DNA of 37,318 bases from a virus (lineage: Duplodnaviria; Caudoviricetes). A program made the translations under genes and the position numbers. Each line of letters starts with the position of its first letter. Position 1 is the first letter of the stretch. The stretch lies in the IMG/VR virus record IMGVR_UViG_3300025502_000065, positions 1 through 37,318 of that record. One strand, written 5' to 3'. This document shows, one piece after another, positions 3,938 to 37,318 of this stretch. The notes below the pieces were generated by a model. The model searched no databases, had not been told where the DNA came from, and saw nothing but the letters and a program-made list of their open reading frames with translations.

Positions 3938-4849
3938 TTACGGGTTTGACGCCGCGATAACCGCCGCTTTTTCTTTGCTCGTCAGTTGTGACCACTCAGG
4001 GGATTGATAGGCTCCATCAGGATCGTAGTAGGCTCGGTCGTCCATTGGTTCGTAGATCTGCTCCCAGCCATCGGGTGCGGGGATCTCGGGAGGTTTCGGG
4101 GCTTTGGTTTGCCCTTCGACTTCATTCATCCAGTGGCCCTTGTTTAGCCATGTTGCGGGATAGGGGATGAATTGTCCCCCGTCCTTTATCCATGCGTCGG
4201 TTTGCTTTTGGGATTGAATGGCGTTGAGTATTTCTTCTATGGTGGCGGTCTTGGTGGCTTTCCTGAATGCGTTTTCAGCGTCAACCTTCCCCAGCCTTCT
4301 CGGGTAGGCTTCCCAGAAATCTTCAAAACCCGCGCAAGAGAAAGCTTTAGCTTTCGACTTCTTGGTTTTTGTTTTTGTATCTGCATCTGCATCTGCATCT
4401 GTATCTGCTATGTGCATGTTTTGCGTTACCGAAGCGTTACCTTGCGTTACCGAAGCGTTACCTTGCGTTACCGAAGCGTTACCTTTTTGCCTCTCTTTAA
4501 ACTTCCTCTGGCGCTCCGCATTGGCGTTTTTGGTGTCTTCCCTCGATGCCATGGCGCGATATTTGGCGTGGTTCAAAAGCTCCCAGCCTCCGTTTATTGG
4601 CAGCGCCCGACGCCCCTCATGGTCGGCGGTCCTAGAGTATTTGTCCGGCGAGAGGAACTTTACGATTGCCGCCTCGCAGTCATCGACAGAGACGCCTGCG
4701 ACACGGGCAAGGCCGGGGATGCTGGCCATGACCTCACCGTGTTGATTTGAAAGCGCGAGCATCGTGATCCAGACGATTCGCGTTTTGTCGTCCTCGGTCC
4801 AGATGGTTGAGGTGACGATAGAGTTGAATAATTTTGTGTAATTTGGCAT
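3938..4849 (-). CDS. Phage replication initiator (lambda O/DnaD-like architecture)
   Basis: N-terminal wHTH-like region, internal repeats, FEDFWEAYPRR...QFIPYPATWLN domain; lies just upstream of dnaB. Confidence 0.88.
   Translation of the reverse strand: MPNYTKLFNSIVTSTIWTEDDKTRIVWITMLALSNQHGEVMASIPGLARVAGVSVDDCEAAIVKFLSPDKYSRTADHEGRRALPINGGWELLNHAKYRAMASREDTKNANAERQRKFKERQKGNASVTQGNASVTQGNASVTQNMHIADTDADADADTKTKTKKSKAKAFSCAGFEDFWEAYPRRLGKVDAENAFRKATKTATIEEILNAIQSQKQTDAWIKDGGQFIPYPATWLNKGHWMNEVEGQTKAPKPPEIPAPDGWEQIYEPMDDRAYYDPDGAYQSPEWSQLTSKEKAAVIAASNP
4421..4483. repeat. 3 x 21-bp iterons inside initiator (probable phage ori)
   Basis: ttgcgttaccgaagcgttacc x3, next to (tctgca)n hexamers and a T-rich tract at ~4360-4410. 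Confidence 0.8.
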
Positions 4850-8942: not shown

Positions 8943-9325
8943 GATAAATAATCTAGCAGGGTTTTCTTGGCCTCGTCGCGACCGTAGCAGACGACGGCGC
9001 GGTATCCGTGAAACTTTAGCGTCATCAGCCAGCGCATTTGCAGCTCAGACACGCCGCCCATTCCTTTTGGTGTTTTTGGTTTATTGCCAACGGTTTTCAT
9101 CTCGATAAAGAGTCCGTGAAAGCCCTGCCTCGCGACCGGCAAGAACAAATCAGGGACGCCCGGCTTGACGCCCTCGGCCTTCATTTTTTTCGCGACCAGC
9201 ATGTTTCGATGGCCCCCGTTCGGGATGGCAAAGAGCAGATCAAGCTCAGGGATTTCCCGCGCGATAACTGCCGCCCATGTCATGAGTGACCTCTGTTCGT
9301 CGTGCTCTAGTGGGTAGGCTCTCAT
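8939..9325 (-). CDS. VRR-NUC domain nuclease
   Basis: EHDEQ, AIPNGG, GVPDL, FIEMK, Q..W. Confidence 0.92.
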   Translation of the reverse strand: MRAYPLEHDEQRSLMTWAAVIAREIPELDLLFAIPNGGHRNMLVAKKMKAEGVKPGVPDLFLPVARQGFHGLFIEMKTVGNKPKTPKGMGGVSELQMRWLMTLKFHGYRAVVCYGRDEAKKTLLDYLS

Positions 9326-10146
9326 GCCGAACCTCCGAATCCATCCTGCCCAGCAGCCCCTCGCTTAGCCCAATACGGAAGCCCGATGATCTTTACCTCG
9401 TCATCCCACGGTGAAGGGTAGTGGCCCGTCTCGATCGAATGACGCCATTGTTCCAGTGCCGTGAGATACCACGCCCGCCCGATGGCAATGTCCGCACGAT
9501 CAAGCTCTACGACCGCGATTTCATAAGGTGCGGAAGACTCCTGAAAAATCAACTTCCATCGATCTCGTTTCTCGCTGGTGCATAGGTTGTAAAGATCGAG
9601 ATACCACGCAGCTTGGACGTGATAGCCAAAATCAGCGATGGTTGATGGCATCTTGTCGAGTGAGTTGGTTGTTTTTAAATCGACCAGAGTGTCGGCAAAC
9701 TCGCCCTGAGGAACAAGGTCGAGCCTGCACTTTCCAACTCCGATGGACTTGAGCGGACCAACGCATGAAACCTGCGTGTCAGCGCCGTCAAGAAGCGCCC
9801 CAGCAAAGTGATGACCCTTGACTAGTTCTGCAGCCTTCGACGCCTCGTTTAGAGTCTCGCTGGTAATCACGGGATTCAACTGAGACTTTCGCCACGTCTG
9901 AGCGTCCTTCGTGCGGAAGTCAGAAAATGGCGATACTGAGAAGCATTTCGCCAGTTCATGCGGTTGCAGAATTAGGCAATCGACGAGACTCCCCCATATC
10001 ATGGCGTCAGTCTGAACGAATGGAATCTCGCGTGTCTTGTGCCACTTCGCCGGGTTCTTCGCGAACTTCCAGAGCGTTGATTTCGAGATCGCGGGAAAGG
10101 CGTGATATTCCAGTTCCGAAATGTTGCGGTTGATCCCGATGTTCAT
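9322..10146 (-). CDS. RecE/exonuclease VIII-like PD-(D/E)XK nuclease
   Basis: YHA..AISKS, KCRLD, DLKTT, YHVQAAWY. Confidence 0.9.
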   Translation of the reverse strand: MNIGINRNISELEYHAFPAISKSTLWKFAKNPAKWHKTREIPFVQTDAMIWGSLVDCLILQPHELAKCFSVSPFSDFRTKDAQTWRKSQLNPVITSETLNEASKAAELVKGHHFAGALLDGADTQVSCVGPLKSIGVGKCRLDLVPQGEFADTLVDLKTTNSLDKMPSTIADFGYHVQAAWYLDLYNLCTSEKRDRWKLIFQESSAPYEIAVVELDRADIAIGRAWYLTALEQWRHSIETGHYPSPWDDEVKIIGLPYWAKRGAAGQDGFGGSA

Positions 10147-10424
10147 GAGTGGCCCTCCGCCTCGATCATTTTAACGCAACGGATGCGGCCTTGCATTGCG
10201 ATCGCATCAGCCTCCTCCCGTGTAGGATGGAATATGGGATCGCCCGTGGAGTAAAAATTAGCCCAGCAGACAAAGGGCGCAGGCTTAACGCGGTAGTCGC
10301 AGACGCCAAATTCCCACAACGGTGATCCTGTAAAGCGCCACTGACCACCGTGCGCTTGATGTTCCACGTCGGCCCCGTCACGGTGCGCGGTCACTACGGC
10401 AATGATTTCGTCGTGTGTCATCAT
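10143..10424 (-). CDS. Hypothetical phage protein
   Basis: PLWEF...DYRVKP motif; overlapping stop/start. Confidence 0.75.
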   Translation of the reverse strand: MMTHDEIIAVVTAHRDGADVEHQAHGGQWRFTGSPLWEFGVCDYRVKPAPFVCWANFYSTGDPIFHPTREEADAIAMQGRIRCVKMIEAEGHS

Positions 10425-11287
10425 GCCGCACCTCCCGCCTGGCGAATGTCAAACACGGCATTCTCGATGACTTCCCAATCGCTCACGATCATCGCGTGAA
10501 TCTCGGGAGCCAGCTTGGAAACCGGCGTCTTGCCGTCGCCAAGCCCCATGGATTCGAGCGCCTTGACGATCTCGGTCGGAGTAATGGCATCGTCCGGAGT
10601 AGCGCCTGCCGTTTCCATAAGCTCCTTGATCGTGTCGATATCGGATTGCACGAGTTTCATGATGCGCTCGACCGGCGTATCGACCTCGGGCGTTGTCTCG
10701 ATGGACTTCCACGGGTTGCCCTGTGGCGTCACATTACGCTCTGGCTCGGAGTCCTCAAGTTCATCCCGAGTATAGATCCCGAGAAGCACGTCAGGGAAGT
10801 GGCGCCGACAAAGCGACCGGCTCGAAAAGTAGAACAACTGCTGGTCAGGGTCGGCCTTCCAGAGCGGAGAGTTTTTCGTGGTGATCGAACTAATTTCAGG
10901 CGACTCATACACGACCTCTCCGCCGTCGCTCAGTGTTGCGGAAACTTTGCATTTCCGGGTTGATCCAGATCCCGAGTAAGCGACGGCAAAGCGACCATGG
11001 ATAGGAGCACGCCGCAGGATGACGGCATTGATGAGTTGAGCCTCATACCCGAGTCGGTCATTTACCGAATAGGATTTATTGGCGACGGCAAACGGTGACA
11101 TTTGCCATTCGCTCGCCTGAATCGCGATAGCCATGCAAGCGCCGGGTTGGTCGCGCAGGTGTTTCGGAATCGCAATCGCCGACTTCGACATGAGGATTGC
11201 GAATGATTCGATTTCCGTCATTGAGCGGAAGGCAAAGCCTCCGATGACTGGAAGATGATTTGATGTAGTGGTAGTGATTTCGTTCAT
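10421..11287 (-). CDS. recT: RecT-family single-strand annealing recombinase
   Basis: IPKHLR.QPGACMAI, W.MSPFAVANK, NSPLWK.DP.QQL, PDVLLGIYT.DEL. Confidence 0.88.
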   Translation of the reverse strand: MNEITTTTSNHLPVIGGFAFRSMTEIESFAILMSKSAIAIPKHLRDQPGACMAIAIQASEWQMSPFAVANKSYSVNDRLGYEAQLINAVILRRAPIHGRFAVAYSGSGSTRKCKVSATLSDGGEVVYESPEISSITTKNSPLWKADPDQQLFYFSSRSLCRRHFPDVLLGIYTRDELEDSEPERNVTPQGNPWKSIETTPEVDTPVERIMKLVQSDIDTIKELMETAGATPDDAITPTEIVKALESMGLGDGKTPVSKLAPEIHAMIVSDWEVIENAVFDIRQAGGAA

Positions 11288-15911: not shown

Positions 15912-15945
15912 TTGAATCTGCGATATATTAGGGGCTTGTTAGGGC
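15912..15945 (+). promoter_or_regulatory. Conserved late promoter motif (tape-measure operon)
   Basis: TTGAAT ctgcgatatattagggg CTTGTT agggc ATG. Confidence 0.75.
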
Positions 15946-17754
15946 ATGGCTTCAAACCGCGCCAATCTCCAAACGATCATTTCAGCGGACGCGTCGCGAT
16001 TTTCTGCGACAATGCGTAAGGCGGGCGGGACTGCTGCCGCTACGGGAAAGCGTATTGCTAAGGGGATTGCCGTAGGCGGTGCCGCTCTTGCCGCCATAGG
16101 AGTAGCCGCCGCCGCTTTTGTTGGCGTAATGTCAGGGCGCAAAATGGCAGGGGGCATCAAAAACGCTCTAGATCTAGGCGGCGCGCTGTCGGACGTGGCC
16201 GCGCAAACGGGATTGAGCGCAGGGCAGGTCGCTGTGCTTCAGCGAGCCTTTACCGATAATGGCATTTCGGGGGATAAGCTCGGCGGTGTCATCAACAAGA
16301 TGCAAAAAGCAATTATCGACATGGGCGACGGACTCAAAGCGCCGACTGATGCCTTTGCCGAGCTTGGCATTTCGATTGAGGACATTAAAGACCTTTCGCC
16401 GTCCGATCAGTTTGCCCTGATTGCAAAAAGGATCTCCGCCATCAGCGACCCTGCCATGAGAGCCGCTGCTTCCATGAGGATTTTTGGAAAGTCGGGTGGC
16501 GAACTCAACGTGCTCTTTGCTGATGGAGGCGCAATCGACAAGGCCGGTAAGTCACTCGGGAGGCAAGCGGAAATCCTTGATCGTCGCGCCGGTGACTTTG
16601 ATCGCGCTGCCGACCTTCTCGCAGGCGCGGGAGTAAAGGTCCAAGGCTTCTTTGTCGGCATGGCCGACAAGGTTGTCGATCCACTTCTTAAAATTCTAAA
16701 CCGTTTTGACAAAATTGACTTCGCTTCGCTGGGTCAGCAGGTCGGTCAGTCTCTCGCGCCGCTTTTTGAAAAAGTAGCAGCGAACATTGATGGGATTGTT
16801 TTAGGCATGACGACCGCGCTTGAATACGCGGGGCGGTTCATTTCGACGCTTGCGTCGTCAGAAATCTCGGAGTCTTACTCTAAGTTTGTCCCAATATATT
16901 TCGAGTCGCTTAAATTGGGCGGAAGATTACTCGCCGAATATCTCATTAAAGGATTTGCCGCCGCGCTTGCATTTTTTAAAGATACTTTTTCAAAGGTGAC
17001 CGTGCTGGACATGGGCAAGGCCCTATTTCGAACATTTGCAAGAATCTTGTTTGAAGTCGGCGATGCCATTGACCTCCTCCTAAAGGGAACGTTCACAAAG
17101 TCGATAGAAGGCGCGGGATCCACCCTTGAGGATTCGATTAACGCTGCCTTTGGCGGGATTGACTGGGGACTTAGCGAGGAAAGCGAGAATGCCGCGAAGG
17201 AATGGAAGCAGCTATTCAAGGATCTTTTCCCCGAGGTGAATCCGTCCGCTCCGAGCGGATCAACATCCGAGTCCGATTTATACGATCAGGAATCCGAGGA
17301 TCAGAAAAGGCGAGTGATGGCAGACGAAGCGGCAGCAGCCGCCGCGAAATCGGGAGCATTCCCGGCATTCGGCACTGACTACGGACCGCGTGACCCATTT
17401 GAGCAAGCAGGGCCTTCAAAATCATTGATCAATAAGGATGTTGCTGCATCCGCCGCAAAATCAACGGAACTGGCAAGGTCTGGTTTTTCCGGTCTGTCGG
17501 AACTGGCGAGAATGCAAGCCGATAAGGCGGGAGGTTTTGCAGTAGGTAGCGGGTCTTCCCTTTCTCTAGCAAATCAAAAGAATCCGGGCGGAGCTTTTGG
17601 CAGGTCGTCGGGACTCCAAACCGGATCCCTAGGAGCTAAACGCAAAGTCGGCGGTGACAAGGAAAGCAAGAAAGCGGAGACGCTGCAAGAAAAGCAAGTA
17701 AGCTCACTCGAAAGCATCGACGGGAAACTAACTCAAGCTCTAACAGTAGGATAA
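15946..17754 (+). CDS. Tail tape measure protein
   Basis: 602 aa, Ala/Gly-rich helical; ISADASRF start; LSDVAAQTG; IFGKSGGEL. Confidence 0.92.
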   Translation: MASNRANLQTIISADASRFSATMRKAGGTAAATGKRIAKGIAVGGAALAAIGVAAAAFVGVMSGRKMAGGIKNALDLGGALSDVAAQTGLSAGQVAVLQRAFTDNGISGDKLGGVINKMQKAIIDMGDGLKAPTDAFAELGISIEDIKDLSPSDQFALIAKRISAISDPAMRAAASMRIFGKSGGELNVLFADGGAIDKAGKSLGRQAEILDRRAGDFDRAADLLAGAGVKVQGFFVGMADKVVDPLLKILNRFDKIDFASLGQQVGQSLAPLFEKVAANIDGIVLGMTTALEYAGRFISTLASSEISESYSKFVPIYFESLKLGGRLLAEYLIKGFAAALAFFKDTFSKVTVLDMGKALFRTFARILFEVGDAIDLLLKGTFTKSIEGAGSTLEDSINAAFGGIDWGLSEESENAAKEWKQLFKDLFPEVNPSAPSGSTSESDLYDQESEDQKRRVMADEAAAAAAKSGAFPAFGTDYGPRDPFEQAGPSKSLINKDVAASAAKSTELARSGFSGLSELARMQADKAGGFAVGSGSSLSLANQKNPGGAFGRSSGLQTGSLGAKRKVGGDKESKKAETLQEKQVSSLESIDGKLTQALTVG

Positions 17755-17755
17755 T

Positions 17756-18376
17756 ATGCCGACTCCAATCTCAGTTGCAAATACCGCTTTCCGCGAGGTA
17801 TCCGTTCAGGAAACGAAAAATCGCGGCGGCATGGATTCCGTTTCTATCCGATTGCGCGGGGCTGCATCTGCTCTAGCTGCCGCAAAAGCGACCTATCGGC
17901 GCGCCGGTCGATACGGATCGTATCGCACAATGGGAATTGAAACCATCGACTCAACCGAAAGCGGACCCGTTGCCGAGATCAACATTACCATACTTGGATT
18001 CATTGATACCATTGATTCGCAAAATGGAGTCGTCTCAATCACCGATGACATTTCAGCTCAGAGCGTCACGATCAACACTGACGACGACGAAAATATTACG
18101 TTTAATTATTTCGCTCAAAAGACATCGGTGAGATACATCAGCCGGACGGAACAATCCCCGCGAAATACGAAATACCCTGGTATTGTCCCGAGCGCCATCC
18201 CAACGGACACTTTGTTTCAACCTAACCCGCCAAAATACACGGGCAGCATTTCAGGCCGCTATAAACTGGTTGGCCGATTGATTTCATTTCAGCGGGAGCG
18301 TATTGCCGATAATGTTTGGGCGGTTGCCGAAACATGGTCCAACTTGATTGAGCCGGTGCAAGAAGTGGGAACATAA
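17756..18376 (+). CDS. Putative tail tip/distal tail protein
   Basis: Immediately downstream of the tape measure; beta-rich. Confidence 0.6.
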   Translation: MPTPISVANTAFREVSVQETKNRGGMDSVSIRLRGAASALAAAKATYRRAGRYGSYRTMGIETIDSTESGPVAEINITILGFIDTIDSQNGVVSITDDISAQSVTINTDDDENITFNYFAQKTSVRYISRTEQSPRNTKYPGIVPSAIPTDTLFQPNPPKYTGSISGRYKLVGRLISFQRERIADNVWAVAETWSNLIEPVQEVGT

Positions 18377-18984
18377 TGAAAGAAAAGCCAGTATTTAAAA
18401 GCGGTAATACGGCGATGGTCGCTGGGCTTAACTCCGTAGCCGATTACGCACGCGAACATGGAGTTAACCCCGGCGGCTCGCCCGGATGGTTGCAAACTCC
18501 TGATGGTTGGAAACCGCCATCAGTATTTATGGCAGCGAGTGTTGAAAGCCCTTGGGATCTGGTAGCGGGTGAAGATGAAGGAACTTTTAAACTCCGCGCC
18601 CCCGTGGTTGTAGCTGGAATCACGGACCTCGGAACCGTAATCGTAATAGACAACACGCCAATCACGCTTGAGTCCGATAAGTTTGTAGTCCTCAAAATTG
18701 ACGACGTTATAGCAGATCCATACACGTTTACACTCGCACTCAAGGAAGTAGACGAATCGGGCGGCCTTGAAGTTTACACATTTACCGACGACGACGAACT
18801 CGAAACAGCCAACCTCCCGCTCTATAAGCTGGCAGACGTATCTTCTGATGGCTCTGTTAGAGTGGGTGATTTCCACGCAATCAGTTATATTACACCGGGA
18901 ATCAAAGCGCTGGCATCTCATCAGGTGCTTATTCCTGATCGTCCCGCCAGTGCTTACGTGCCGCGACTGGTGCCCTTGACATGA
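18376..18984 (+). CDS. Putative tail protein
   Basis: Translationally coupled in the tail operon. Confidence 0.55.
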   Translation: MKEKPVFKSGNTAMVAGLNSVADYAREHGVNPGGSPGWLQTPDGWKPPSVFMAASVESPWDLVAGEDEGTFKLRAPVVVAGITDLGTVIVIDNTPITLESDKFVVLKIDDVIADPYTFTLALKEVDESGGLEVYTFTDDDELETANLPLYKLADVSSDGSVRVGDFHAISYITPGIKALASHQVLIPDRPASAYVPRLVPLT

Positions 18985-19775
18985 TAAGCGATTATTTACA
19001 CGGCGACTCAGGAGCGCAACAGGCGGAGGGAATCCATACGACCGTTCCAAGCGAGCTTGGCTTTTTTACTCTCACCCCTGATTCATATCGAGAAGGGGAC
19101 GATCCCAGTGATGATCCCGCCGAAAACTTTAAAACAATAACTCGCGTTTCTCCGCTATGGTTGCCGCCGCCGCTTGCGTCGAAGTTCCTTAAAACCTCAG
19201 TTTGGAATGTTAGTATAACAGTCACACCTACGGGCAGCGAGCCGGATTTCATTTCAGGAACTTTCGATTACGACATTATTGCAGGAACAACAAAGGAGCT
19301 TACGATCCAATCCGGCGTTACAATTAAGGACGAGGTGGTAAATGAGCCTGGATGGATTATTGGCCGTGAAGCTGTCGAGTCCTATGGCGGAACCTTCGGC
19401 GGCCTCAATCTTATAATCACTGAGCCTACTGGAGATGAGTTTAATCCGTTCTTTTCCTTTTACGGCTTGCAGGTTGCCGTGAGCTTAGGCAGATGGAAAC
19501 CGGCAAACAGATCAACGCGCCCGCCTGATGTAGGAGGAGCAAAGCCAAGGTGGAATAACCGGGAGGGATTAGATGAGGTCTGGATATGGGATCTTGGAGT
19601 AAGCGCCAATGTGGGATATTTCGGCCTCGGCGGAAGCATTAACCCCATATTTTCTACATCGGTTTTAAACTACGAGGGCGAAAAATCGGGCTATGTTAAT
19701 CCGCCATTCGACGATGCCGACAACGCGCATCTGCAAGTGACCGTTTCCCACGGCGCGTTTTTCGAGGAATTTTAA
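18981..19775 (+). CDS. Putative tail/baseplate protein
   Basis: ATGA-coupled, last gene of the block. Confidence 0.55.
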   Translation: MISDYLHGDSGAQQAEGIHTTVPSELGFFTLTPDSYREGDDPSDDPAENFKTITRVSPLWLPPPLASKFLKTSVWNVSITVTPTGSEPDFISGTFDYDIIAGTTKELTIQSGVTIKDEVVNEPGWIIGREAVESYGGTFGGLNLIITEPTGDEFNPFFSFYGLQVAVSLGRWKPANRSTRPPDVGGAKPRWNNREGLDEVWIWDLGVSANVGYFGLGGSINPIFSTSVLNYEGEKSGYVNPPFDDADNAHLQVTVSHGAFFEEF

Positions 19776-23570: not shown

Positions 23571-24536
23571 ATGCGCCTAACATTTGACAAATTCGGGAGG
23601 ATCAGCGATATGCCGCCCTCGATTATCCTCGGTGATTCCATTGATCTTGAGTTGATCGGGAAGGACTTGGCGCTTGATGCTGCCGATTCTTACCGCATTG
23701 TTTTGGCGCTGAAAGAGGCTATCCCGATCACGGTAGGCCGCATTACATTGGGCTTCGGCGCTGGATCGGCATCGTTTCGAGCAGATCAGGCCGGGGCTTG
23801 GACGATCTCGCAGGCCCTGAACGACCTCGATGCAGTCAGCAGCGAGGGAGGCGTGACCGTGACAGGCAAGAATGGGCTGTATCAGGTCGCATTTGTTGCC
23901 GTAGGTGCGCGGGATGCAATCACCGTCTCACATTCCGCTATCGGGACACTCGCGAGCCGGTGCAGGACGGTCGTTGCGGGATCTGCGGGCGCGAAGGCAG
24001 TCTTTGAACTTGATCTAACCGTTCAGACGCTCGCCGAGGATTCGGTATTTACCTCCATTCCCGCCCAAACGGCAACGGTTGAAGCGATTTCCACGGGCTC
24101 GGTGTCTGCGTTTCAGGTTGATCGGATTGCGATCTCAGATGTTTCGGCGGGCGGAATGTTCCGCATCGCAGTCAGCGCCGGAGTCACTACGGTTTGGATG
24201 CCTGTCGGGATTTCGTCATATCGGCTTGAGCTTGAGCTTGACGCAATCTCGGAAGGATCTTTTCTGGTATCGCGCACGGCAACGGCTGAATCCGTGGCCT
24301 TTGATCTTGCGCGGACCTCGATGGGTGTAAATGCCCCGCCGACGGTTCAATCCAATTTTCCCGCTAGGCCGGGTATTGCCGTCACTCTTGAAACCGGCCT
24401 GACAAAGCCGCTAATCGCCCTGACCGATGCCGCCGCGCACGTTGCGATCTTGCTTTTCGTAACGCCTACCGAAACGCTATTCGCGCAGGAGGTTGCGCTC
24501 TCGCCGACCATTGCCGACCATCCTGCGGCCCTGTGA
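23571..24536 (+). CDS. Putative virion structural protein
   Basis: 321 aa, beta-rich; ISQALNDL.....GGVTVTG.NG.Y.V.F motif; coupled to terL. Confidence 0.65.
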   Translation: MRLTFDKFGRISDMPPSIILGDSIDLELIGKDLALDAADSYRIVLALKEAIPITVGRITLGFGAGSASFRADQAGAWTISQALNDLDAVSSEGGVTVTGKNGLYQVAFVAVGARDAITVSHSAIGTLASRCRTVVAGSAGAKAVFELDLTVQTLAEDSVFTSIPAQTATVEAISTGSVSAFQVDRIAISDVSAGGMFRIAVSAGVTTVWMPVGISSYRLELELDAISEGSFLVSRTATAESVAFDLARTSMGVNAPPTVQSNFPARPGIAVTLETGLTKPLIALTDAAAHVAILLFVTPTETLFAQEVALSPTIADHPAAL

Positions 24537-26419
24537 TGTCCGCAATTTCCGCCCTTGCTCGATACCGCAAAGAGAGCGCCCGCTATCTGTTGCAGCTCTG
24601 CCGGTTCAAGAAAACCCTGAACTGCGAGGAGTGGAGCGAATCAGTTCGCCGCATGGAGGGAGGCGGGCGGTATCGCCTATCATTCGCTCCGTATCAGCGG
24701 GAAATGATGCGGACCCCGTTTGATCCGAATGTTCAGATGACGGTATTCATGATGCCGTCTCGATCCGGTAAAACGGAAGTCATCATGAACATTATCGGGC
24801 ACGCCATTGATGAATCGAAACGGAAAATCCTTGTGACTTACCCGACCATCGGAGCCGCTGAGAAGTGGAGCAAGGAAACCTTTATGACCGGCCTGATTCG
24901 ATGCACGGAGTCGCTCGATAGGGTTTTAGGTGACGGCGAGGGCAGGCGGAAAAGCTCAAACACGATTCTTCACAAGATGTTCCCAGGGGGACTTTTAAAC
25001 GTATTCGGCGCGAATGTCCCGACCGAAATGCGACGGGCGAAAGGCAATCTTCTGATCGCAGACGAGGTTGACGCATTTAAAAACACGGATGAAGGCGACC
25101 CGCTGAAAATCTTATGGGTTCGCGGGACGGAATACCCTGACACTGTGAAAATAGCAGCGTCATACCCGAGCCTAAAGGGATCTTCGCGGATTGAAGACAT
25201 GATGCTCCAAAGCGATTATCGCGTGATGAAATACCCGTGCCCTCATTGCTCCGAGTGGTTCGTGATGCATCGCAATCAGATACGATACCAGAGGGATGCG
25301 CCGGAAGACGCATACATGGAGTGCCCGTCTAACGGATGCAAAATCACGGACGCTGAACGGCGCTCGCTCGTGTTGTCTCATGACAAATGGACCCCGACGC
25401 GGCCATTTACAGGCATTGCGGGGTTTCACGCGTCAGGAATGACCTCACCGCACCCCGTTCAAAAGGGTTTCAAGAGCCACCTTCATTACGTGGCGCAACT
25501 TGAGATTGATGCCGAGATGGCGGAAAACCGCGAGATGGCTATTCAGGTTTTGGTCAATACCTTTGACGCTGAGACATACCAAGCGCCCGAGGAGGAGAAG
25601 CCGAGCCCCGAGGGTATTGCCATGGAGGCTTACGATTTCCTCTCACGCGCCCACGACGGGGCCCTGCTCATTCCCGATAGTTGCATCATGGTCACCTTCG
25701 GCGGAGACGTTCAAGGTGACCGCGTAGAGCTTGAATTTGTCGGGCATGGCATCGACAACCAGACTTTCGGGCTTGGCTATCACGTTCTTTCTGGAAAGCC
25801 CACGGAAAACGCGGTGTGGAATGCCGTCGATAAGCTCGTTGAAGGGTCAGTCTTTCGGCATCCGTCAGGGAAAGATTTAAAGGCTGTGCGCGGGTTCATC
25901 GACTCGAAATACAAGACCGACTTTGTGCGAGCGTTTACCAGAGCCAGAAAGGCCCGTGGTATTTTTGCAATCTACGGATCAACGGTTCTTTCAAAGCCGA
26001 TTGTCTCACCCGCTAAAAAGATGGCAGGCGTCACTGTTTACGAAATCGGGACGCATGAAGCCAAGTCCCTGATTTATCAAAACGCCAATCTGAGATGGGA
26101 CAAGAAAGGCGACGCCCCGCCTGGGTATCCCCATTATCCCTTTGGGTTCGGATACACGCCGGAATATTTCAAGATGCTCCTCTGCGAGGATGTCGAAATG
26201 AAGAAAGGGCAGGATGGGAACTTTTACCAGTTTTTCTCAAACCCTAACAGATTGCGAAACGAGCCGCTCGATGTGCGGGGTTACGCGATGGCCGCAGCCC
26301 GATCTCTCAATCCAAATTATGCCAAGATCGCGCAAAACCTCGCGGGAAATACCCCTGAAAAGGCCGTAAAAGACTACCAATTAGATAAAACTCCCCGCAA
26401 TTTCGTCACGGATGCCTAA
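24536..26419 (+). CDS. terL: Terminase large subunit, lambda GpA family
   Basis: PYQRE; SRSGKT; DEVD; CPHC...CP..GC; GGDVQGDR; RNEPLD. Confidence 0.96.
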   Translation: MSAISALARYRKESARYLLQLCRFKKTLNCEEWSESVRRMEGGGRYRLSFAPYQREMMRTPFDPNVQMTVFMMPSRSGKTEVIMNIIGHAIDESKRKILVTYPTIGAAEKWSKETFMTGLIRCTESLDRVLGDGEGRRKSSNTILHKMFPGGLLNVFGANVPTEMRRAKGNLLIADEVDAFKNTDEGDPLKILWVRGTEYPDTVKIAASYPSLKGSSRIEDMMLQSDYRVMKYPCPHCSEWFVMHRNQIRYQRDAPEDAYMECPSNGCKITDAERRSLVLSHDKWTPTRPFTGIAGFHASGMTSPHPVQKGFKSHLHYVAQLEIDAEMAENREMAIQVLVNTFDAETYQAPEEEKPSPEGIAMEAYDFLSRAHDGALLIPDSCIMVTFGGDVQGDRVELEFVGHGIDNQTFGLGYHVLSGKPTENAVWNAVDKLVEGSVFRHPSGKDLKAVRGFIDSKYKTDFVRAFTRARKARGIFAIYGSTVLSKPIVSPAKKMAGVTVYEIGTHEAKSLIYQNANLRWDKKGDAPPGYPHYPFGFGYTPEYFKMLLCEDVEMKKGQDGNFYQFFSNPNRLRNEPLDVRGYAMAAARSLNPNYAKIAQNLAGNTPEKAVKDYQLDKTPRNFVTDA

Positions 26420-26427
26420 TAATAGGT

Positions 26428-26461
26428 TTGAAATGCCGATATATTAGGGCTTTGCTAGGCC
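26428..26461 (+). promoter_or_regulatory. Conserved late promoter motif (gpW-portal-terS)
   Basis: TTGAAA tgccgatatattagggc TTTGCT aggcc ATG. Confidence 0.72.
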
Positions 26462-26995
26462 ATGAGCATTCCCTCAACGGCTTACCTTGGCGATACCCTG
26501 ACATGGCGCGAAACTTTCGCAACGGGATCAAACGGAAAAGGCGTCTTGCGTCATATCGAATCCGGCGATGTCGTCGCAGTTGAGGCGGTTGTAGATGGCG
26601 CAAGTTGGAATCTCGACATTGCCGGATCACTTACTGATGGGATGCCGTCAGGGGCTTATTCCGCGTCGGTTGTCATCGACCTCGGAGCCACAAGGGAAAC
26701 CCGTCTCATCGGGTCTATCGTCATGCGCCCGCCCGTGTCCCGCCCCATAGAAGAGTCTCACGCTCGGAGGATGGTGAAGATGTTGGAAGCTCACCTTGAG
26801 GGGCGAATCAGTGACGACGAGGGGCGCGGCATCGAAAGCTACACCATCGGAAACGTCCCTATCACGAAGATCCCCATCCCGCAGGCAAAGGAACTGCTCG
26901 CCATGTATCGCGTCGATTTAAAGCGCGAGATCGCCGCCGCTCGTCTCGATGCCGGGCTCGGAACCGGGAGAATGGTTTACCCAACGTTTGAATAA
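26462..26995 (+). CDS. Head-tail joining protein (gpW-like C-domain with N-terminal extension)
   Basis: GDTLTW; SHARRM...LEA; SYTIG....K; sits between terL and portal. Confidence 0.75.
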   Translation: MSIPSTAYLGDTLTWRETFATGSNGKGVLRHIESGDVVAVEAVVDGASWNLDIAGSLTDGMPSGAYSASVVIDLGATRETRLIGSIVMRPPVSRPIEESHARRMVKMLEAHLEGRISDDEGRGIESYTIGNVPITKIPIPQAKELLAMYRVDLKREIAAARLDAGLGTGRMVYPTFE

Positions 26996-26997
26996 TT

Positions 26998-28452
26998 ATG
27001 ATACTCGACCAACACGGAAACCCCGCCACATCCGGAAAGCGGAATTTTGAGGCGGCGAAAGCCACTCGATATACTGCCGATTGGCTCGCCACATCCGGCC
27101 CCGCCGACAAGATCGGAAAACAGGATATTGCCTCTCTTCGCGACCGCGCACGGGATAGCGAGCGTAACGACGGCTACGTCGAGGGCATCCTGACTGAGCT
27201 AGAAAGCAACATCGTCGGTGAGCACGGAATTGGCGTAAAGTCCATGTGCCGAAAGGCTGATGGCCGAAACAAAGGCGGGGTTGCCGACAAGCTCGACGTG
27301 ACCGCGTGCGCGAAGGTCGATCAAGCATACGAGGAGTTTTCAAAGCGTGGAAAGTTTGACGTGACCCGCCAATATTCCCGCGCGATGCTTGCCCGTGCCA
27401 CTGTGCGAGCCGTTGCCCGTGATGGCGGGGGATTGTCGCGTCTTGTTGAAGGTATCGACAAAAACGAGTTTGGATTTATGGTGCAGGCTCTTGAGATTGA
27501 CGCGCTGAACCCGCGCACGAATGACCCGGCGAAACGAATCCACATGGGAATCGAATACGACGAATGGGATGAGCCTGTAGCCTACCATCTCGATAAACTC
27601 GACCCGCGAGGCGCGATTTACGCCCGCCATGAGACGTTCTCGGTGCCAGCCGATAACCTGTGCCACTTATTCCTTTCCAAGCGAGTATCGCAGTCTCAGG
27701 GCTTCTCGTGGCTCGCCCCCGTGCTGCTCAGGTTGCGCCACCTCGGGAAGTATGAGGAATCTGAAGTCATCGCGGCCCGCGTGTCGTCAAACAAGCTCGG
27801 GTTTTTCGAGACTACGGGCGATTCGGAATACACCGGCGCCGATGACGGGCGAGGAAATATCCTCGCGCCATCTTCGCCCGGCGCTTTCGAAACTCTGCCC
27901 GCAGGCGTGACGGCAAAAATGATTGATCCCGCACACCCTAACGCGGATTACCCAGATTTTAGAAAGGCCATTTTGCGAGGTGTTAGTGCGGGAATTTATT
28001 TGAACTATAATACGCTCGCAAAAGACTTGGAGGGGGTGTCATACTCATCGATCAGGCAGGGGACTCTTTCGGAGCGCGATACGTGGCGGATGATCTGCAA
28101 ATGGTTCATTGAATGCCACGAGATGCCGATCCGGTCCCGCTGGCTTCGCATGGCGCTGCTGATGAATCAGATTGACGGCTATTCTATTGCCGACTATGAG
28201 CGGCTGAATCACGCTGAATTTTCCGGCCGAACCTGGGATTGGGTTGATCCTCTCAATGACATTAAAACCGCCGTCGCAGAGGTTCAACTCGGGATCACGT
28301 CGAGACAGGACATTTGCCGGAAGAAAGGCAAGACCTTTGAAAAGATCGTAGCTCAAAATGAGGTTGATATTGCCCTTCTGGAAAGTGCCGGGTTGCCATC
28401 GGACCCGACAGGAGCGCCGAAACTCGCGCCGCCCGTAACAAACGCCGAATAA
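26998..28452 (+). CDS. Portal protein, lambda family
   Basis: LRDRARD..RND; GIEYD....PVAYH; Q.QGFSW.AP; SYSSIR; WDWVDP. Confidence 0.96.
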   Translation: MILDQHGNPATSGKRNFEAAKATRYTADWLATSGPADKIGKQDIASLRDRARDSERNDGYVEGILTELESNIVGEHGIGVKSMCRKADGRNKGGVADKLDVTACAKVDQAYEEFSKRGKFDVTRQYSRAMLARATVRAVARDGGGLSRLVEGIDKNEFGFMVQALEIDALNPRTNDPAKRIHMGIEYDEWDEPVAYHLDKLDPRGAIYARHETFSVPADNLCHLFLSKRVSQSQGFSWLAPVLLRLRHLGKYEESEVIAARVSSNKLGFFETTGDSEYTGADDGRGNILAPSSPGAFETLPAGVTAKMIDPAHPNADYPDFRKAILRGVSAGIYLNYNTLAKDLEGVSYSSIRQGTLSERDTWRMICKWFIECHEMPIRSRWLRMALLMNQIDGYSIADYERLNHAEFSGRTWDWVDPLNDIKTAVAEVQLGITSRQDICRKKGKTFEKIVAQNEVDIALLESAGLPSDPTGAPKLAPPVTNAE

Positions 28453-28461
28453 GGAGGGCTG

Positions 28462-28878
28462 ATGCTCAAATCAATAAACGAGATCGCTTCAATCGTCGGG
28501 GCTGACAGAGCTACGGTAAAGCGACGCGCCGACCAGCTAGGGCTTGCCGGGCAGGAAGGTGAGAAAAACTCAGTCTGTTACGATACGCGGATCATGCTTC
28601 AACTTGTGCCGGCCCCGTCGCGGAATAGCGATACCGGCGAAGGAGTGACGCTTGAGGAGGCGAGAATCCGGCAGACGGTAGCAGACGCCCGAGTGAAGGA
28701 GTTTGCCGCAGCGAAAGCGGAAGGACTGCTTGCCGACATCGAAGAATTGCTTGCCGCTCAGAATGCAATCTTTGATGTCGTGATCGGGCAGGTCAAAGCA
28801 AGCTCGATGACCGAGGATGAAAAAGAGGATTGTCTTTCGGCGATGGCGAAACAGGCGGAGTTTTGGCGGGATGTTTAA
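28462..28878 (+). CDS. terS: Terminase small subunit (Nu1-like)
   Basis: N-terminal wHTH SINEIASIVGADRATV; EEARIRQTVADAR coiled coil; G.L motif. Confidence 0.72.
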   Translation: MLKSINEIASIVGADRATVKRRADQLGLAGQEGEKNSVCYDTRIMLQLVPAPSRNSDTGEGVTLEEARIRQTVADARVKEFAAAKAEGLLADIEELLAAQNAIFDVVIGQVKASSMTEDEKEDCLSAMAKQAEFWRDV

Positions 28879-34550: not shown

Positions 34551-34608
34551 TAGGATAAAAAGCCCCTAATATATCGCCATTGCAAGAATTATTTTCGCGG
34601 GATGTTAG
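34551..34608 (-). promoter_or_regulatory. Conserved late promoter motif (capsid/tail operon)
   Basis: TTGCAA tggcgatatattagggg CTTTTT atccta ATG. Confidence 0.78.
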
Positions 34609-34614
34609 GACACG

Positions 34615-34643
34615 AAAAAGCCCGCCGGATTAGGGCGGGCTTT
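34615..34643 (-). terminator. Intrinsic terminator upstream of capsid promoter
   Basis: Minus strand AAAGCCCGCC-ctaatcc-GGCGGGCTTTTT. Confidence 0.8.
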
Positions 34644-34664
34644 ACGGGATCGGAATGGTGGCGG

Positions 34665-34784
34665 TTAACCTCGTCGAGCGTGTTGCGCCAAATGTAGAAA
34701 CCAAAGGACAAATACCGCGATGTGAGCAGCCCAATGGATCCCGCCGATTAGGTGCATGAGGAGGAATGCAATGAGGAGAGTCAT
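34665..34784 (-). CDS. 39-aa His-rich membrane peptide, not in ORF track
   Basis: MTLLIAFLLMHLIGGIHWAAHIAVFVLWFLHLAQHARRG; ATGA overlap. Confidence 0.55.
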   Translation of the reverse strand: MTLLIAFLLMHLIGGIHWAAHIAVFVLWFLHLAQHARRG

Positions 34785-35170
34785 CGTGTCCCCTTCCCCT
34801 CAAACGCCCGAGACATGAGCTTCGACCCGATCACGTTGACGCAAGCGGCCGCGATCTTTTTGGGATCGACGAATCCCCATGCCGGAGTGTGAAACCCGAC
34901 CTCGGCGGCAATTGCCAAAATGTCATCGTCGGTAACCCGGTCTTCCTCGATTGCAATCTCATCCTCGCCTGGCTCAATGCCTGAGCCGTTGCACCATTCG
35001 CAGTTGAGGATATCGGTCACGTTGCCGTCTTCGTCATGATCCTCCAATAGACCGGTGCCGCCGCAAACCCTGCACGGGTCGCCCGCTTTCGGGATTGGCT
35101 CGGCGATGTTCTCTGTCAGGACTTGCTTTCGTGGTCTGCCCGCGCGCTTCTTTTCTGTAATATTTTCCAT
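34781..35170 (-). CDS. AT-hook + DnaJ-type CxxCxGxG zinc-finger protein
   Basis: RAGRPRK; CRVCGGTG ... CEWCNGSG. Confidence 0.75.
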   Translation of the reverse strand: MENITEKKRAGRPRKQVLTENIAEPIPKAGDPCRVCGGTGLLEDHDEDGNVTDILNCEWCNGSGIEPGEDEIAIEEDRVTDDDILAIAAEVGFHTPAWGFVDPKKIAAACVNVIGSKLMSRAFEGKGTR

Positions 35171-35376
35171 GCCGCTCGTTTCTTTTGGTTTTCTGGTATT
35201 GTTTTGATGAGCCTGATTCCCATTTCAGGAGCCAAGATGAGATTCCATGCGGTTCTTTCGAGGGCATCCGATGCCGCAGACAGGCACGTAAAGTCGAAAT
35301 GATTGGCGACCGCTGCCGTTGATGTGCCGGGGTGACCCTCGATCCATGCGATTATTCGGAGCTGTCGGTCGGTCAT
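35116..35376 (-). CDS. Putative winged-helix protein
   Basis: MTDRQLRIIAWIEGHPGTSTAAVANHF. Confidence 0.55.
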   Translation of the reverse strand: MTDRQLRIIAWIEGHPGTSTAAVANHFDFTCLSAASDALERTAWNLILAPEMGIRLIKTIPENQKKRAAWKILQKRSARADHESKS

Positions 35377-35429
35377 GCTGAGTATTCGAGGGCTACAAGG
35401 CGATAAATCGGAATTTCACCATCGCCGCA

Positions 35430-35530
35430 AAATAAAAAGCCGCCCGGAAGCAATGCCCCCAGGACAACTGGTAAAATGATTCTAGCGTTAGATTCATTTT
35501 ACCACATCTAAGGCGACTTTGCAACCGGCG
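35430..35530. repeat. ~100-bp direct repeat, copy 1 (antisense RNA module)
   Basis: aaataaaaagccgcccggaagcaatgccccc...ggtaaaatga...tcattttaccacatctaaggcgactttgcaaccggcg; slightly diverged. Confidence 0.95.
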
Positions 35531-35545
35531 GGATCATACACCGCC

Positions 35546-35596
35546 ATGACAAATTTATCAATCGAGGAGGCCAAGGAACGGCTTCCCGAAAGATAG
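35546..35596 (+). pseudogene. 16-codon remnant of primase start
   Basis: MTNLSIEEAKERLPER*, near-identical to the start of 35956..36123. Confidence 0.65.
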
Positions 35597-35657
35597 GTGG
35601 ACACGAAAGGCGGCGCTGTCCATTTATCCGCCCTCTCATGTTGGGTATTATCCCTTC

Positions 35658-35855
35658 ATGACCCCAACTCTACACCCAAAAGAAGACCGCCAACTGTCCC
35701 GCAAGGAACTGTCTGCGCGGTGGAACCTCTCGACTAAAACCCTCAAGCGCCGCGAGAAGGAGGGCATACTCCGCCCCTTGTCATTCGGAGCGCGGACGGT
35801 GCGCTATCGTCTCTCGGAAATCCTGGCCATCGAGGAGGACGCCGCCGCAAAATAA
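35658..35855 (+). CDS. AlpA/excisionase-like wHTH protein
   Basis: LSRKELSARWNLSTKTLKRREKEG...VRYRLSEI; TATTAT 6 nt before the ATG. Confidence 0.88.
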   Translation: MTPTLHPKEDRQLSRKELSARWNLSTKTLKRREKEGILRPLSFGARTVRYRLSEILAIEEDAAAK

Positions 35856-35948
35856 AAAGCCGCCCGGAAGCAATGCCCCCGGACGGCTGGTAAAATGATC
35901 TAACGCTAGATTCATTTTACCACATCTAAGGCGACTTTGCAACCGGCG
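35850..35948. repeat. ~100-bp direct repeat, copy 2
   Basis: Matches copy 3 over its length. Confidence 0.95.
35853..35908 (-). ncRNA. Predicted ~55-nt counter-transcribed RNA (also in copies 1 and 3)
   Basis: Minus-strand TTGCAA(35942-35937)-17 nt-TAAAAT(35919-35914), then AGCCGtCCGG-loop-CCGGgCGGCTTTTT terminator. Confidence 0.6.
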
Positions 35949-35955
35949 AAACGTC

Positions 35956-36123
35956 ATGAATAATTTATCACTCGACGAGGCCAAGGAACGGCTTCCGCTT
36001 CGCGAGCTGGCCCGTAGCCTGGGGCTTGAGGCACCCGATCGGGACGGGCAGACCTTTCAATGCTGGTTCGCCGCCACCCGCCACGCTAACACCCCGCGAA
36101 AATCTAACATCCCGCGAAAATAG
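35956..36123 (+). pseudogene. Truncated primase (N-terminal zinc-binding-domain fragment)
   Basis: MNNLSLDEAKERLPLRELARSLGL...FQCWF...RHAN resembles the start of a CHC2-type domain; the frame runs into the promoter copy and stops. Confidence 0.6.
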
Positions 36124-36162
36124 TTGTTGCAATGGCGATATATTAGGGGCTTCTTGGCTAGG
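36104..36162 (+). promoter_or_regulatory. Inverted copy of the capsid late promoter
   Basis: 36104-36152 equals the reverse complement of 34560-34608 at 47/49 nt. Confidence 0.9.
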
Positions 36163-36384
36163 ATGAGAAACGCCACTGAATCCAATACCGTCAAAGCCGT
36201 ATGGCTGAGAGTTCCACAAGCCGTTCAACTTACTGGGCTAAGCCGCTCCAAGGTTTACGAGCTGATATCTTCCGGAGCGATCCGAAGCGCCAGCCTGAGA
36301 GCTCCGGGGCAAAAGCACGCCACCCGATTAATTGATCGGGCCGCCTTGCTCGCCTTCATCGAGTCGCACGTTGAAACCAAATAA
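36163..36384 (+). CDS. AlpA/excisionase-like wHTH protein
   Basis: WLRVPQAVQLTGLSRSKVYELISSGAIRS...TRLIDRAAL; ATG at leaderless distance from the promoter. Confidence 0.88.
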   Translation: MRNATESNTVKAVWLRVPQAVQLTGLSRSKVYELISSGAIRSASLRAPGQKHATRLIDRAALLAFIESHVETK

Positions 36385-36477
36385 AAAGCCGCCCGGAAGC
36401 AATGCCCCCGGACGGCTGGTAAAATGATCTAACGCTAGATTCATTTTACCACATCTAAGGCGACTTTGCAACCGGCG
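36379..36477. repeat. ~100-bp direct repeat, copy 3
   Basis: Matches copy 2; continues ggatcatacaccgccatga like copy 1. Confidence 0.95.
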
Positions 36478-36564
36478 GGATCATACACCGCCATGAATAA
36501 CTCACATCACACCGCACCACTCCCTGTCACCCTCGACGCCATTATCGCAGAGGGGGGAAAGCCA

Positions 36565-36651
36565 TAAGCTGCGAAAGCTGCGAAAGCTCACCCTTCCACA
36601 CCCTTTCGCAGCTTACGCAGCTTACGCAGCTTACGCAGCTTACGCAGCTTA
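36565..36651. repeat. 9-bp iteron cluster (2 in one orientation, 5 in the other)
   Basis: agctgcgaa x2 ... ttcgcagct + tacgcagct x4. Confidence 0.9.
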
Positions 36652-36700
36652 TGGCACGGGGGTAAAAGCTGAGTAAGTAAGGATTAAACAATCGACATGA

Positions 36701-36734
36701 CCACCTCGACCGCCACCTCGACCGCCACCTCGAC
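36701..36734. repeat. 12-bp tandem repeat x3
   Basis: ccacctcgac(cg) x3, inside mini-ORF MTTSTATSTATSTSLSQ. Confidence 0.85.
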
Positions 36735-36990
36735 GAGTCTCTCGCAATAACCCGCTGGCTTAAAGATTCTTGTCATTGGAACCTTGCCGCCATCGTCCAC
36801 ACGGGAAACAAATCTCTTCATTGCTGGTTTGACCATCCCAGCGAGACCGTCCTCGCCGGATTCCGCGAGACCTTACCCGTCCTAGGAATCGACCCGAGCT
36901 TGATCGGGCACCCTGAGCATCCGGCACGACTACCGGGGCAGGTTCACGACAAGAGCGGGAATAAAAGCCGCGTCCTATATTTGCGCTGAC

Positions 36991-37260
36991 ATGGCCACCG
37001 CTGACCAATTCCCCAAAGCGCCGCCGCTACGGTTTGAACTGACCGAGGAGCAAGCCGCCCTCGTGGACGCCGCCAAGCCTGCCGGAGGTGTTGCGATTGT
37101 TGTCGGATACGCACACCGCCACCCATGGCCGGACCCGGAGAGGTTCACCCTTTGCGCCTGGTTCGTGACGATGCCAAAAGCTGAGGCCGCGTTAATGGCG
37201 GGCGGGATCATGGCGACGGGCAGGCCGAAGGTGAAGGCACCTCGACGGGGGAAAAGCTGA
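36991..37260 (+). CDS. Hypothetical protein
   Basis: 89-aa ORF with ATG start and basic C-terminus. Confidence 0.55.
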   Translation: MATADQFPKAPPLRFELTEEQAALVDAAKPAGGVAIVVGYAHRHPWPDPERFTLCAWFVTMPKAEAALMAGGIMATGRPKVKAPRRGKS

Positions 37261-37309
37261 GCTGGCGTTGCGTTTAATGCAAGTTACTTGCAACTAGCGC
37301 TTGTCGTCA

Positions 37310-37318
37310 ACTCGACCC
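37310..37318 (+). repeat. Right copy of terminal 9-bp direct repeat
   Basis: ACTCGACCC identical to 1-9. Confidence 0.8.

Follow-up and report, generated by a model that had tools for sequence, protein, structure and literature searches.

In plasmid pMV158, RNAII, a 48-nt counter-transcript encoded between copG and repB, inhibits translation of repB (PMC4485353). RNAII acts in trans as an inhibitor of replication and causes incompatibility, and its 5' tail matters more than its loop, where changes are tolerated (PMC4485353). Among phage satellites, those of the P4 type have a late promoter upstream of an alpA homologue that carries transcription into the replication genes (PMC10111431). Virion-encapsidated integrative mobile elements (VEIMEs) have been reported in Verrucomicrobia (PMC10803314, PMC9618062). 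The DNA considered here is the phage record IMGVR_UViG_3300025502_000065 (37,318 nt, called the window below when the whole stretch is meant), which is listed in its database as linear and 43% complete. Near its right end is a repeat in three copies. By prediction it encodes the antisense RNA with which a family of satellites that carry an integrase controls its replication.

The copies of the repeat begin at 35430, 35850 and 36379, with spacings of 418-420 and 529 nt. Over the unit itself, which is about 90 bp, copies 2 and 3 are identical (88/88) and copy 1 has 6 differences in 90 positions (84/90). Every copy has a minus-strand promoter, TTGCAA-17-TAAAAT with an extended -10 element (35524, 35942 and 36471), and the RNA predicted from it, 55-57 nt long, has some 20 unpaired bases ahead of a 14-bp hairpin and a U-tract. 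The first-pass annotation of the window had described three such direct repeats, with promoter, hairpin and T-run, and all of these elements are present. Promoter-like sites number 7, compared with 1.8 +/- 1.4 in shuffles. When the RNA strand is folded, copy 1 has a z score of -2.1, against -4.5 and -4.7 in the other two copies. Copy 1 has two changes in the stem, and only on the minus strand do these remain paired, as G.U. By prediction, then, the unit has what is typical of plasmid counter-transcribed RNAs (ctRNAs), namely its own promoter and an intrinsic terminator opposite a replication gene (rep) leader, and a length of ~45-60 nt. An Rfam search with the unit returned nothing near a gathering score; ctRNA families (for example, RF00489) reached 17.1 bits at best against a cut-off of 50 (E 4.2).

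Matches to an exact 30-nt query from the repeat came from four distinct viral contigs and from seven metagenome contigs; the record of the window itself is among them. In contigs L011, L012 and L013 the unit is single and sits at the start of a rep gene. The order in L012 is integrase, copy of the stretch that precedes the phage capsid gene, helix-turn-helix (HTH) gene, unit, AAA_25 gene, repeats, 312-aa primase-like gene and 89-aa gene. In L013 it is integrase, 208-aa gene, HTH gene, unit and AAA_25 gene, and cos-type DNA is also present; L011 has an HTH gene, the unit and a DUF3987-type rep gene. L012 and L013 have the defining traits of satellites: an integrase, an AlpA/Xis gene and a primase/replicase, and no virion genes. 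The L013 integrase is a PF00589 protein, and that of L012 is assigned from weak Pfam matches and homologues. The expectation that single units would lie between a Xis/AlpA gene and an intact rep gene in integrase-bearing islands is borne out by these two contigs. The satellite plan that is seen reads int - (X) - Xis/AlpA - unit - rep (AAA_25, DUF3987) - repeats - primase-like gene, and stubs in the window suggest a DnaG-type rep as a third variant.

A palindrome covers the -10 box and the RNA start of each unit in the window, and in copy 1 its 4-nt loop is inverted. A strong palindrome occurs only in the window lineage; among distant units, 1 of 11 is clearly beyond shuffles. Its use as an HTH-specific operator was set aside, as four different HTH genes precede the same palindrome. 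A 1-nt bulge changes arm between the satellites (L011-L013) and the window copies. This shift puts an upstream ATG out of the rep frame in all window-lineage copies; the ATG is in frame with rep in L011, L012, L013 and the DUF3987 copy of the related phage L007.

Satellites L012 and L013 may be induced and packaged by the phage: L013 has a cos region, and L012 a capsid-upstream element, in common with it. (Throughout, 'late promoter', 'iteron', 'cos' and 'tRNA att' are names given on the basis of position and sequence.) At L012 1558-1698, the terminator and putative late promoter from upstream of the phage capsid gene (window 34554-34639) stand before the alpA-like gene, and an 18-bp box is present four times versus once in the phage. 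The amplified boxes are likely to be an infection sensor, and the phage group is a probable helper of these satellites. A shorter core of the same element also lies upstream of the phage tape-measure gene (window 15920-15934). On L012 1746-1944, a contig from sequencing run X13 joins the end of a 70-aa HTH gene to the terminator that precedes the late-promoter copy, so that these parts occur in yet another arrangement. In run X1 no cover of the L012 integrase or of the AAA interior was seen, an observation that is given no weight.

The ends of the satellites carry further recognizable sequences. A tRNA 3' half (CAT anticodon, read from the sequence) adjoins the L012 integrase at 84-127. This is the probable att site, a reading that also draws on tRNA-like loose ends; ARAGORN identified no whole tRNA on L012. 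The L013 contig has its terminus exactly at a cos-type 9-mer, with DNA like the left end of the phage in inverted orientation (1-94 and 4389-4530). A second, degenerate cos-like site is present upstream of the L013 integrase.

Related units accompany a broader set of primase-like genes. This family has 220 homologues, and the named ones are from Verrucomicrobia; its primase label is weak (phrog_239 matches in 17 of 54 members of family A2). At its 78 genomic loci, an integrase, an HTH gene and a rep gene are often upstream. A detector for the unit (TTG-16/18-TAnnnT, 40-52 nt, a hairpin of <= -15 kcal/mol and a U-tract) was positive on the antisense strand in 11 of 66 upstream regions, which total 162 kb; 10 of the 11 belong to the 31 loci with a full-length primase. 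It gave no matches on the sense strand or in 1.02 Mb of other DNA. These counts are to be read with the caution that the limits were tightened after a looser run, in which antisense matches numbered 12 of 61 and sense matches 2, and the controls taken downstream scored 4 and 3 of 48. Loci L061 and L109 were included by eye, and both fail the detector.

The distant units are 44-51 nt, mostly 46, and their sequences are divergent. For 13 that were checked, the unit either precedes the rep ATG by 14-36 nt or falls inside the first ~35 codons. The exceptions are L077, where several starts are possible, and L086, for which none was resolved. The position within the first ~35 rep codons rather than upstream is seen in L059, L060, L062 and L082. 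The hairpin, with 1-5 G.U pairs, is more stable in the antisense than in the sense strand in all 12 of 12 units, a bias that is partly built into the detector. Some primase-family elements, then, have the predicted unit as a conserved feature, and others do not.

Distant blastn against GenBank phages produced no match, and 401 genomes of the order around genome G002 contained only short terminator-like matches and no close host or donor genome. A 17-nt terminator pattern matched 36 stretches of viral contigs, and the unit was present only in contigs already known; 6 viral matches were obtained with a gapped pattern designed on the distant subtype, none of which has a satellite layout. With the AAA protein as query no viral relative was recovered, and with the primase-like family one viral contig was found (L132). 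This contig belongs to a different phage that carries a member of the family among its own replication genes (8560-10954), where no antisense unit was detected.

The window is likely to be a complete cos-type phage genome, because the same 9 nt occur at both termini (1-9 and 37310-37318), the assembly L016 continues through the 37318-to-1 join (9-mer at L016 1873-1881), and L007 starts at the same 9-nt site. It encodes a gpA-type terminase, a lambda-family portal, a fused protease-capsid, DnaB, an initiator, RecT and exonuclease VIII, and its host group is probably Verrucomicrobia. No integrase was found among 55 scanned open reading frames of the window or by tblastn with two satellite integrases, and ParA was not found in the window. 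In L007 only ~82 bp separate cos from gene 35376, so window positions 35378-37318 constitute an added arm. To judge from its matches, this last 1.94 kb is a mosaic of satellite DNA (Table 1).

The arm begins with an L007-type HTH tail of 29 nt, copy 1, a primase stub, a 65-aa HTH gene and copy 2. It continues with a longer stub of the same primase, an L012-type promoter copy, an L013-type 73-aa HTH gene and copy 3. After these come the start of an AAA/DUF3987 gene, 9-bp repeats, the genes for a primase-like protein and an 89-aa protein and, last, cos DNA of the L013 type. Because the satellite flanks differ from copy to copy, the array is best described, on these matches, as a serial capture from different satellites and not a duplication of one locus; the earlier idea that the phage had multiplied a single locus is not supported. 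The HTH genes at 35658-35855 and 36163-36384 both match the Xis family phrog_66, which agrees with their initial description as Xis/AlpA-like, and the second alone has a further match, to HTH_17/AlpA, at E <= 0.01. Ahead of copy 1 is a gene tail that had been assigned to the same gene, and it is instead the end of a third, different HTH gene that is complete in L007. The three short reading frames of 16, 55 and 24 aa noted at first are present. Two of them had been called primase-like; the first two are zf-CHC2/Toprim primase stubs, and the third is the N-terminus of an AAA_25/DUF3987 rep protein, not a primase.

It had also been supposed that only the RNA, HTH genes and iterons were kept. The arm retains, in addition, a primase-like gene, the 89-aa gene, the late-promoter copy and the satellite cos DNA. 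Repeat tracts are likewise located between rep and primase in L012, L059, L067, L072 and L080. An intact primase-like gene follows the iterons in L016 (318 aa) and P0001 (314 aa), and L017 has its N-terminal 269 aa before the contig ends. In the window the gene lacks ~0.64 kb; this gap is flanked by short repeats, and the missing part is on a 685-bp unitig in run X1. Beside the unit, copies 1 and 3 have just an HTH tail or a rep stub.

Table 1. Features of the window that relate to the antisense units and to the satellite-derived arm
Feature	Coordinates	Strand	Basis or remarks
Second site, empty in the window (overlapping stops of terS and a 196-aa gene)	28875..28878	.	Relatives have the unit here
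Element upstream of the capsid gene in the phage itself (putative late promoter), from which the satellite copy derives	34557..34608	-	52-bp inverted repeat with the arm copy
Satellite-derived right arm, supplanting a ~82-bp phage segment between gene 35376 and cos	35378..37318	+	Pieces 90-96% to satellites L012, L013
3' tail of third Xis/AlpA-like gene (75 aa, complete in L007)	35407..35435	+	blastn to L007 6730-6609; weak HTH_17, E 0.015
Copy 1 of the antisense unit: promoter with -35 and -10 boxes, RNA of ~57 nt (predicted), terminator weakened (-18.4 kcal/mol, 5 G.U pairs)	35430..35524	-	
Palindrome, 16-bp arms, spanning -10 box and RNA start	35469..35504, 35888-35922, 36417-36451	.	
16-aa stub, start of DnaG-type (zf-CHC2/Toprim) primase	35546..35596	+	13/16 identical to P0121 N-terminus
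65-aa Xis/AlpA-like HTH gene	35658..35855	+	phrog_66; DNA 97% to L007 cassette, 72% to genomic element L069
Copy 2 of the antisense unit: RNA of 55 nt (predicted), ~20-nt 5' tail, 14-bp hairpin, U-tract	35850..35942	-	
55-aa stub of ~338-aa zf-CHC2/Toprim primase, ended by promoter copy	35956..36123	+	83% to P0121; PF01807/PF13155 on P0122
Copy of capsid-gene upstream sequence (putative late promoter), two 18-bp boxes	36086..36156	+	52-bp inverted repeat with 34557-34608; L012 1590-1696
73-aa Xis/AlpA (HTH_17) gene, L013-type satellite	36163..36384	+	PF12728, PF05930; 57 homologues, many named excisionase-family
Copy 3 of the antisense unit, the same sequence as copy 2	36379..36471	-	
24-aa stub, N-terminus common to AAA_25 (L012, L013) and DUF3987 (L007, L011) rep proteins	36493..36567	+	tblastn 83%; Pfam
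Opposed 9-bp repeat arrays, iteron/origin-like (putative origin)	36561..36670	.	Position between rep and primase
Satellite primase-like gene, without ~0.64 kb in the window assembly	36697..36989	+	Family A2; 318 aa in L016
89-aa satellite gene, no known family	36991..37260	+	After primase in L012, L016
Satellite-type cos-proximal DNA including the 9-nt terminal repeat at its end (putative cos overlap)	37177..37318	+	96% to L013, only 79% to phage L007

The position of copy 1 raises the question of whether the units simply serve neighbouring phage genes. The copy 1 promoter and its weak terminator might drive the leftward 86-aa and 129-aa genes, which lost their upstream region to the arm, with the other copies insulating the phage from the captured promoter and primase. 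Copy 1 sits 54 nt upstream of gene 35376, is oriented toward it and has the weakest hairpin, and L007 has a different 82-bp segment upstream. This explanation is nevertheless improbable. It accounts neither for copies 2 and 3 nor for the units that L007 and L010 carry at another locus, and the phage contains no other target of the RNA beyond an 11-nt match.

The array junctions are backed piecewise by separate assemblies (L008, L009, L016 and L017). Unitigs in runs X1 and X3 cross every junction, and single unitigs in these runs join the phage gene to copy 1 (34579-35452) and span each internal junction; the whole array is on no single record. It is extremely improbable that the array is a chimera assembled from the phage and co-packaged satellites. 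Short-read contigs do break at repeats, and the 0.64-kb primase gap between short repeats may be a collapse, but the X1 and X3 unitigs cross the junctions and the separate assemblies agree. The triplication is therefore not a simple misassembly, which had been named as a possible undoing of the original proposal. The 420-bp block between copies 1 and 2 has about half the depth of the adjoining unitigs in X1 and X3, and an X7 contig omits it, so the phage population looks mixed for this block. The X7 arrangement is a further trimming of captured DNA beside the unit.

Related phages carry the unit at a second locus, the junction that follows terS. L010 and L014 have a bare unit there. The L010 unit is identical to that of satellite L012 (88/88), and homology stops a few bases beyond the -35 box. 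In L007 a 2.6-kb cassette occupies the site. It contains the unit twice in full and once as a half, together with two HTH genes and a DUF3987 gene that is intact, and has no primase and no integrase; L007-type junctions were found again in run X11. The flanks of the L010/L014 unit differ from those in L007. In all, four phage lineages are 86-95% identical over portal-terS, and three of the four carry the unit in complete form, at two loci. Two lineages show both sites; in each of them one site has at least two copies and the other is without any. A single insertion probably gave rise to the copies at the terS site, and two independent captures are therefore counted; the captures involve two loci and at least three donor satellites. 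The prediction that related phages would keep the unit holds for the second locus in L007 and in L010/L014, and is qualified by a copy number that varies and by the loss of the unit from that locus in L136.

The terS junction, between convergent late operons, appears to be an insertion hotspot. In L136 (5221-5506) an unrelated moron gene of ~70 aa begins just past a surviving -35 box, in place of the unit. Among the phage genes more generally, virion genes are on both strands of the window: terL-portal-terS and the tape measure on the plus strand (15946-19775 and 23571-28878), and the capsid operon on the minus strand. Here terS is placed after the portal gene. A gene at 6738-8942 fuses an N6/N4 DNA methylase domain to a SNF2-type helicase.

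Satellite DNA within a helper genome could also reflect the interests of the satellite, as decaying helper-embedded satellites or as a selfish arm that rides on the phage cos. Helper-embedded phage-inducible chromosomal islands (PICIs) exist (PMC10111431), and the arm has satellite cos DNA and, in L016, the primase-like gene. Such an origin is very improbable given that no integrase was found in the window or the L007 cassette, that the putative L012 att is in a tRNA-like sequence and not in a phage late gene, and that a complete replicon is in no phage seen. Likewise, no phage was seen with an integrase or the full rep-plus-primase pair.

The reading favoured here is that the phage keeps the captured unit for trans-acting incompatibility, in which its RNA would block the satellite rep gene. 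By analogy with plasmid systems, and from sequence, we give this a probability of about 0.5. In a quiet satellite, the ~55-nt RNA would pair with the alpA-rep leader. The RNA spans an ATG in frame with rep in L011, L012, L013 and the L007 DUF3987 copy, and direct occlusion or duplex cleavage is therefore plausible. Infection would activate the borrowed late promoter, whose leader transcripts could overwhelm the RNA and allow the satellite to replicate. During phage replication, one to three RNA genes would enlarge the antisense pool just as the satellite needs to escape it, and satellite rep would stay off; the captured iterons may contribute titration. The pairing predicted for the RNA of copies 2 and 3 with each of the three satellite leaders is nearly as good as that of the cognate RNAs (-94 to -107 kcal/mol for the duplexes, versus -115 to -120). 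Phage genomes have acquired satellite DNA both at cos and at the terS junction.

More tentatively, and at slightly less than even chances, helper phages in general may use a stolen satellite antisense brake in trans, as a protein-free, sequence-updatable anti-satellite system that is refreshed by serial capture from cos-sharing satellites.

Several observations weigh against a retained function in trans. A refolding switch that exposes or hides a downstream ATG is unsupported, as RNA binding left the predicted ATG access unchanged. The weakened hairpin of copy 1 fits drift, as do L017, which is without copy 3, and L009 and X7, in which copies 1 and 2 are merged. Copy number varies between 2 and 3 among 99%-identical phages, and near-identical repeats of 100-160 bp, together with RecT and exonuclease VIII, can change it without selection. 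L136 and L163 keep only the -35 remnant of the unit at the terS site. The arm retains activator-type HTH genes, one of them behind a putative late promoter, and sister assemblies retain a primase-like gene; sense leaders in the arm could soak up RNA. Finally, the terminator of the terS-site unit faces the capsid operon, and it could be retained as a terminator only.

These points can be assembled into a different account, in which the units are recombination debris. Hybrids would form easily through cos-end joining and RecET, a harmful rep gene would be purged, and the unit would survive as the one sequence that every donor has, and hence as a mark of the crossovers, with the terS copy serving only as a terminator. 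The common cos region and promoter of satellite and phage, the RecT and exonuclease VIII genes, the entry of an unrelated moron at the terS junction, the L136 loss, the variable copy number and the retained activators and primase all agree with it. However, a terminator needs no -35 or -10 box, yet both are intact in the bare L010 unit, which matches the satellite unit fully despite 5-14% divergence among phage backbones, and capture took place at two separate loci. Debris is an unlikely explanation, if one to be reckoned with.

What is new here is an antisense replication-control unit predicted in Verrucomicrobia satellites and captured by probable helper phages at two loci. Even if capture is neutral, this would be a conserved antisense control unit of integrative satellites with no Rfam match at the cut-off. 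That a satellite has copied and amplified the capsid-promoter region of its helper suggests how minimal satellites sense infection. If the favoured reading is true, incompatibility is exerted through a captured ~55-nt RNA, and phage units should follow the local satellite sequence, as the unit of phage L010 follows that of satellite L012. Defences against satellites would then include a third type, next to protein factors (CRISPR, Odn and Adi) and protein-guided RNA (VIPR); Odn of phage ICP1 is reportedly a protein-based factor against the PICI-like element (PLE).

A helper phage carrying the antisense RNA of a satellite was not reported in any title or start of an abstract among the papers that searches of the openly licensed PMC and bioRxiv literature listed, and the excerpts of PMC13376191 and PMC12597102 hold nothing relevant on phage-satellite recombinants. 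The nearest counterpart of the unit is the copG-rnaII-repB region of pMV158, which likewise has a small DNA-binding gene, a counter-transcript of ~50 nt (tail, one hairpin and U-tract) and a rep gene. The satellite unit differs in that it occurs in integrative Verrucomicrobia elements with helicase/primase replicons, has no sequence likeness to pMV158, and has copies in a helper-type phage. P4 and Gram-negative PICIs resemble the satellites in their int - alpA - regulatory RNA - replication zone and in the late promoter before the alpA homologue (PMC10111431). In contrast, the P4 CI RNA is processed from the sense transcript, whereas the satellite unit has its own opposite-strand promoter and terminator; no match of the unit to C4 (RF01695) or isrK was found in Rfam at E <= 5.

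PICMIs (phage-inducible minimalist islands of the chromosome) and VEIMEs are also small int - alpA - primase elements that need full-size capsids (PMC10803314, PMC9618062). PICMI115 is packaged by headful, whereas L012/L013-type satellites have a cos region in common with the phage; the word 'antisense' does not occur in the PICMI text (PMC10803314, PMC9618062). Helper-embedded PICIs, too, place satellite DNA in a helper genome near late genes. They are complete and inserted by integrase, unlike the phage captures described here, which are without an integrase or a full replicon (PMC10111431).

Among anti-satellite measures, CRISPR nucleases and Adi are protein-based (PMC9638900). ICP1 counters its satellite PLE as a helper, and its Adi turns a satellite component against the satellite; these factors are proteins that act on satellite DNA, whereas the window phage would use a captured RNA regulator and no protein (PMC9638900). 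The VIPR system of phage SUSP1 likewise sets phage-borne small RNAs against a satellite (bioRxiv 10.64898/2026.10.15.759431). In the window region 35401-36700 the longest run of its GGYNN array motif is 2 units; the vipr gene itself was not searched for. VIPR relies on Vipr/Vap1 proteins and on DNA-binding GGYNN guides, whereas the phage described here would turn the satellite's own regulator against it by plain antisense pairing.

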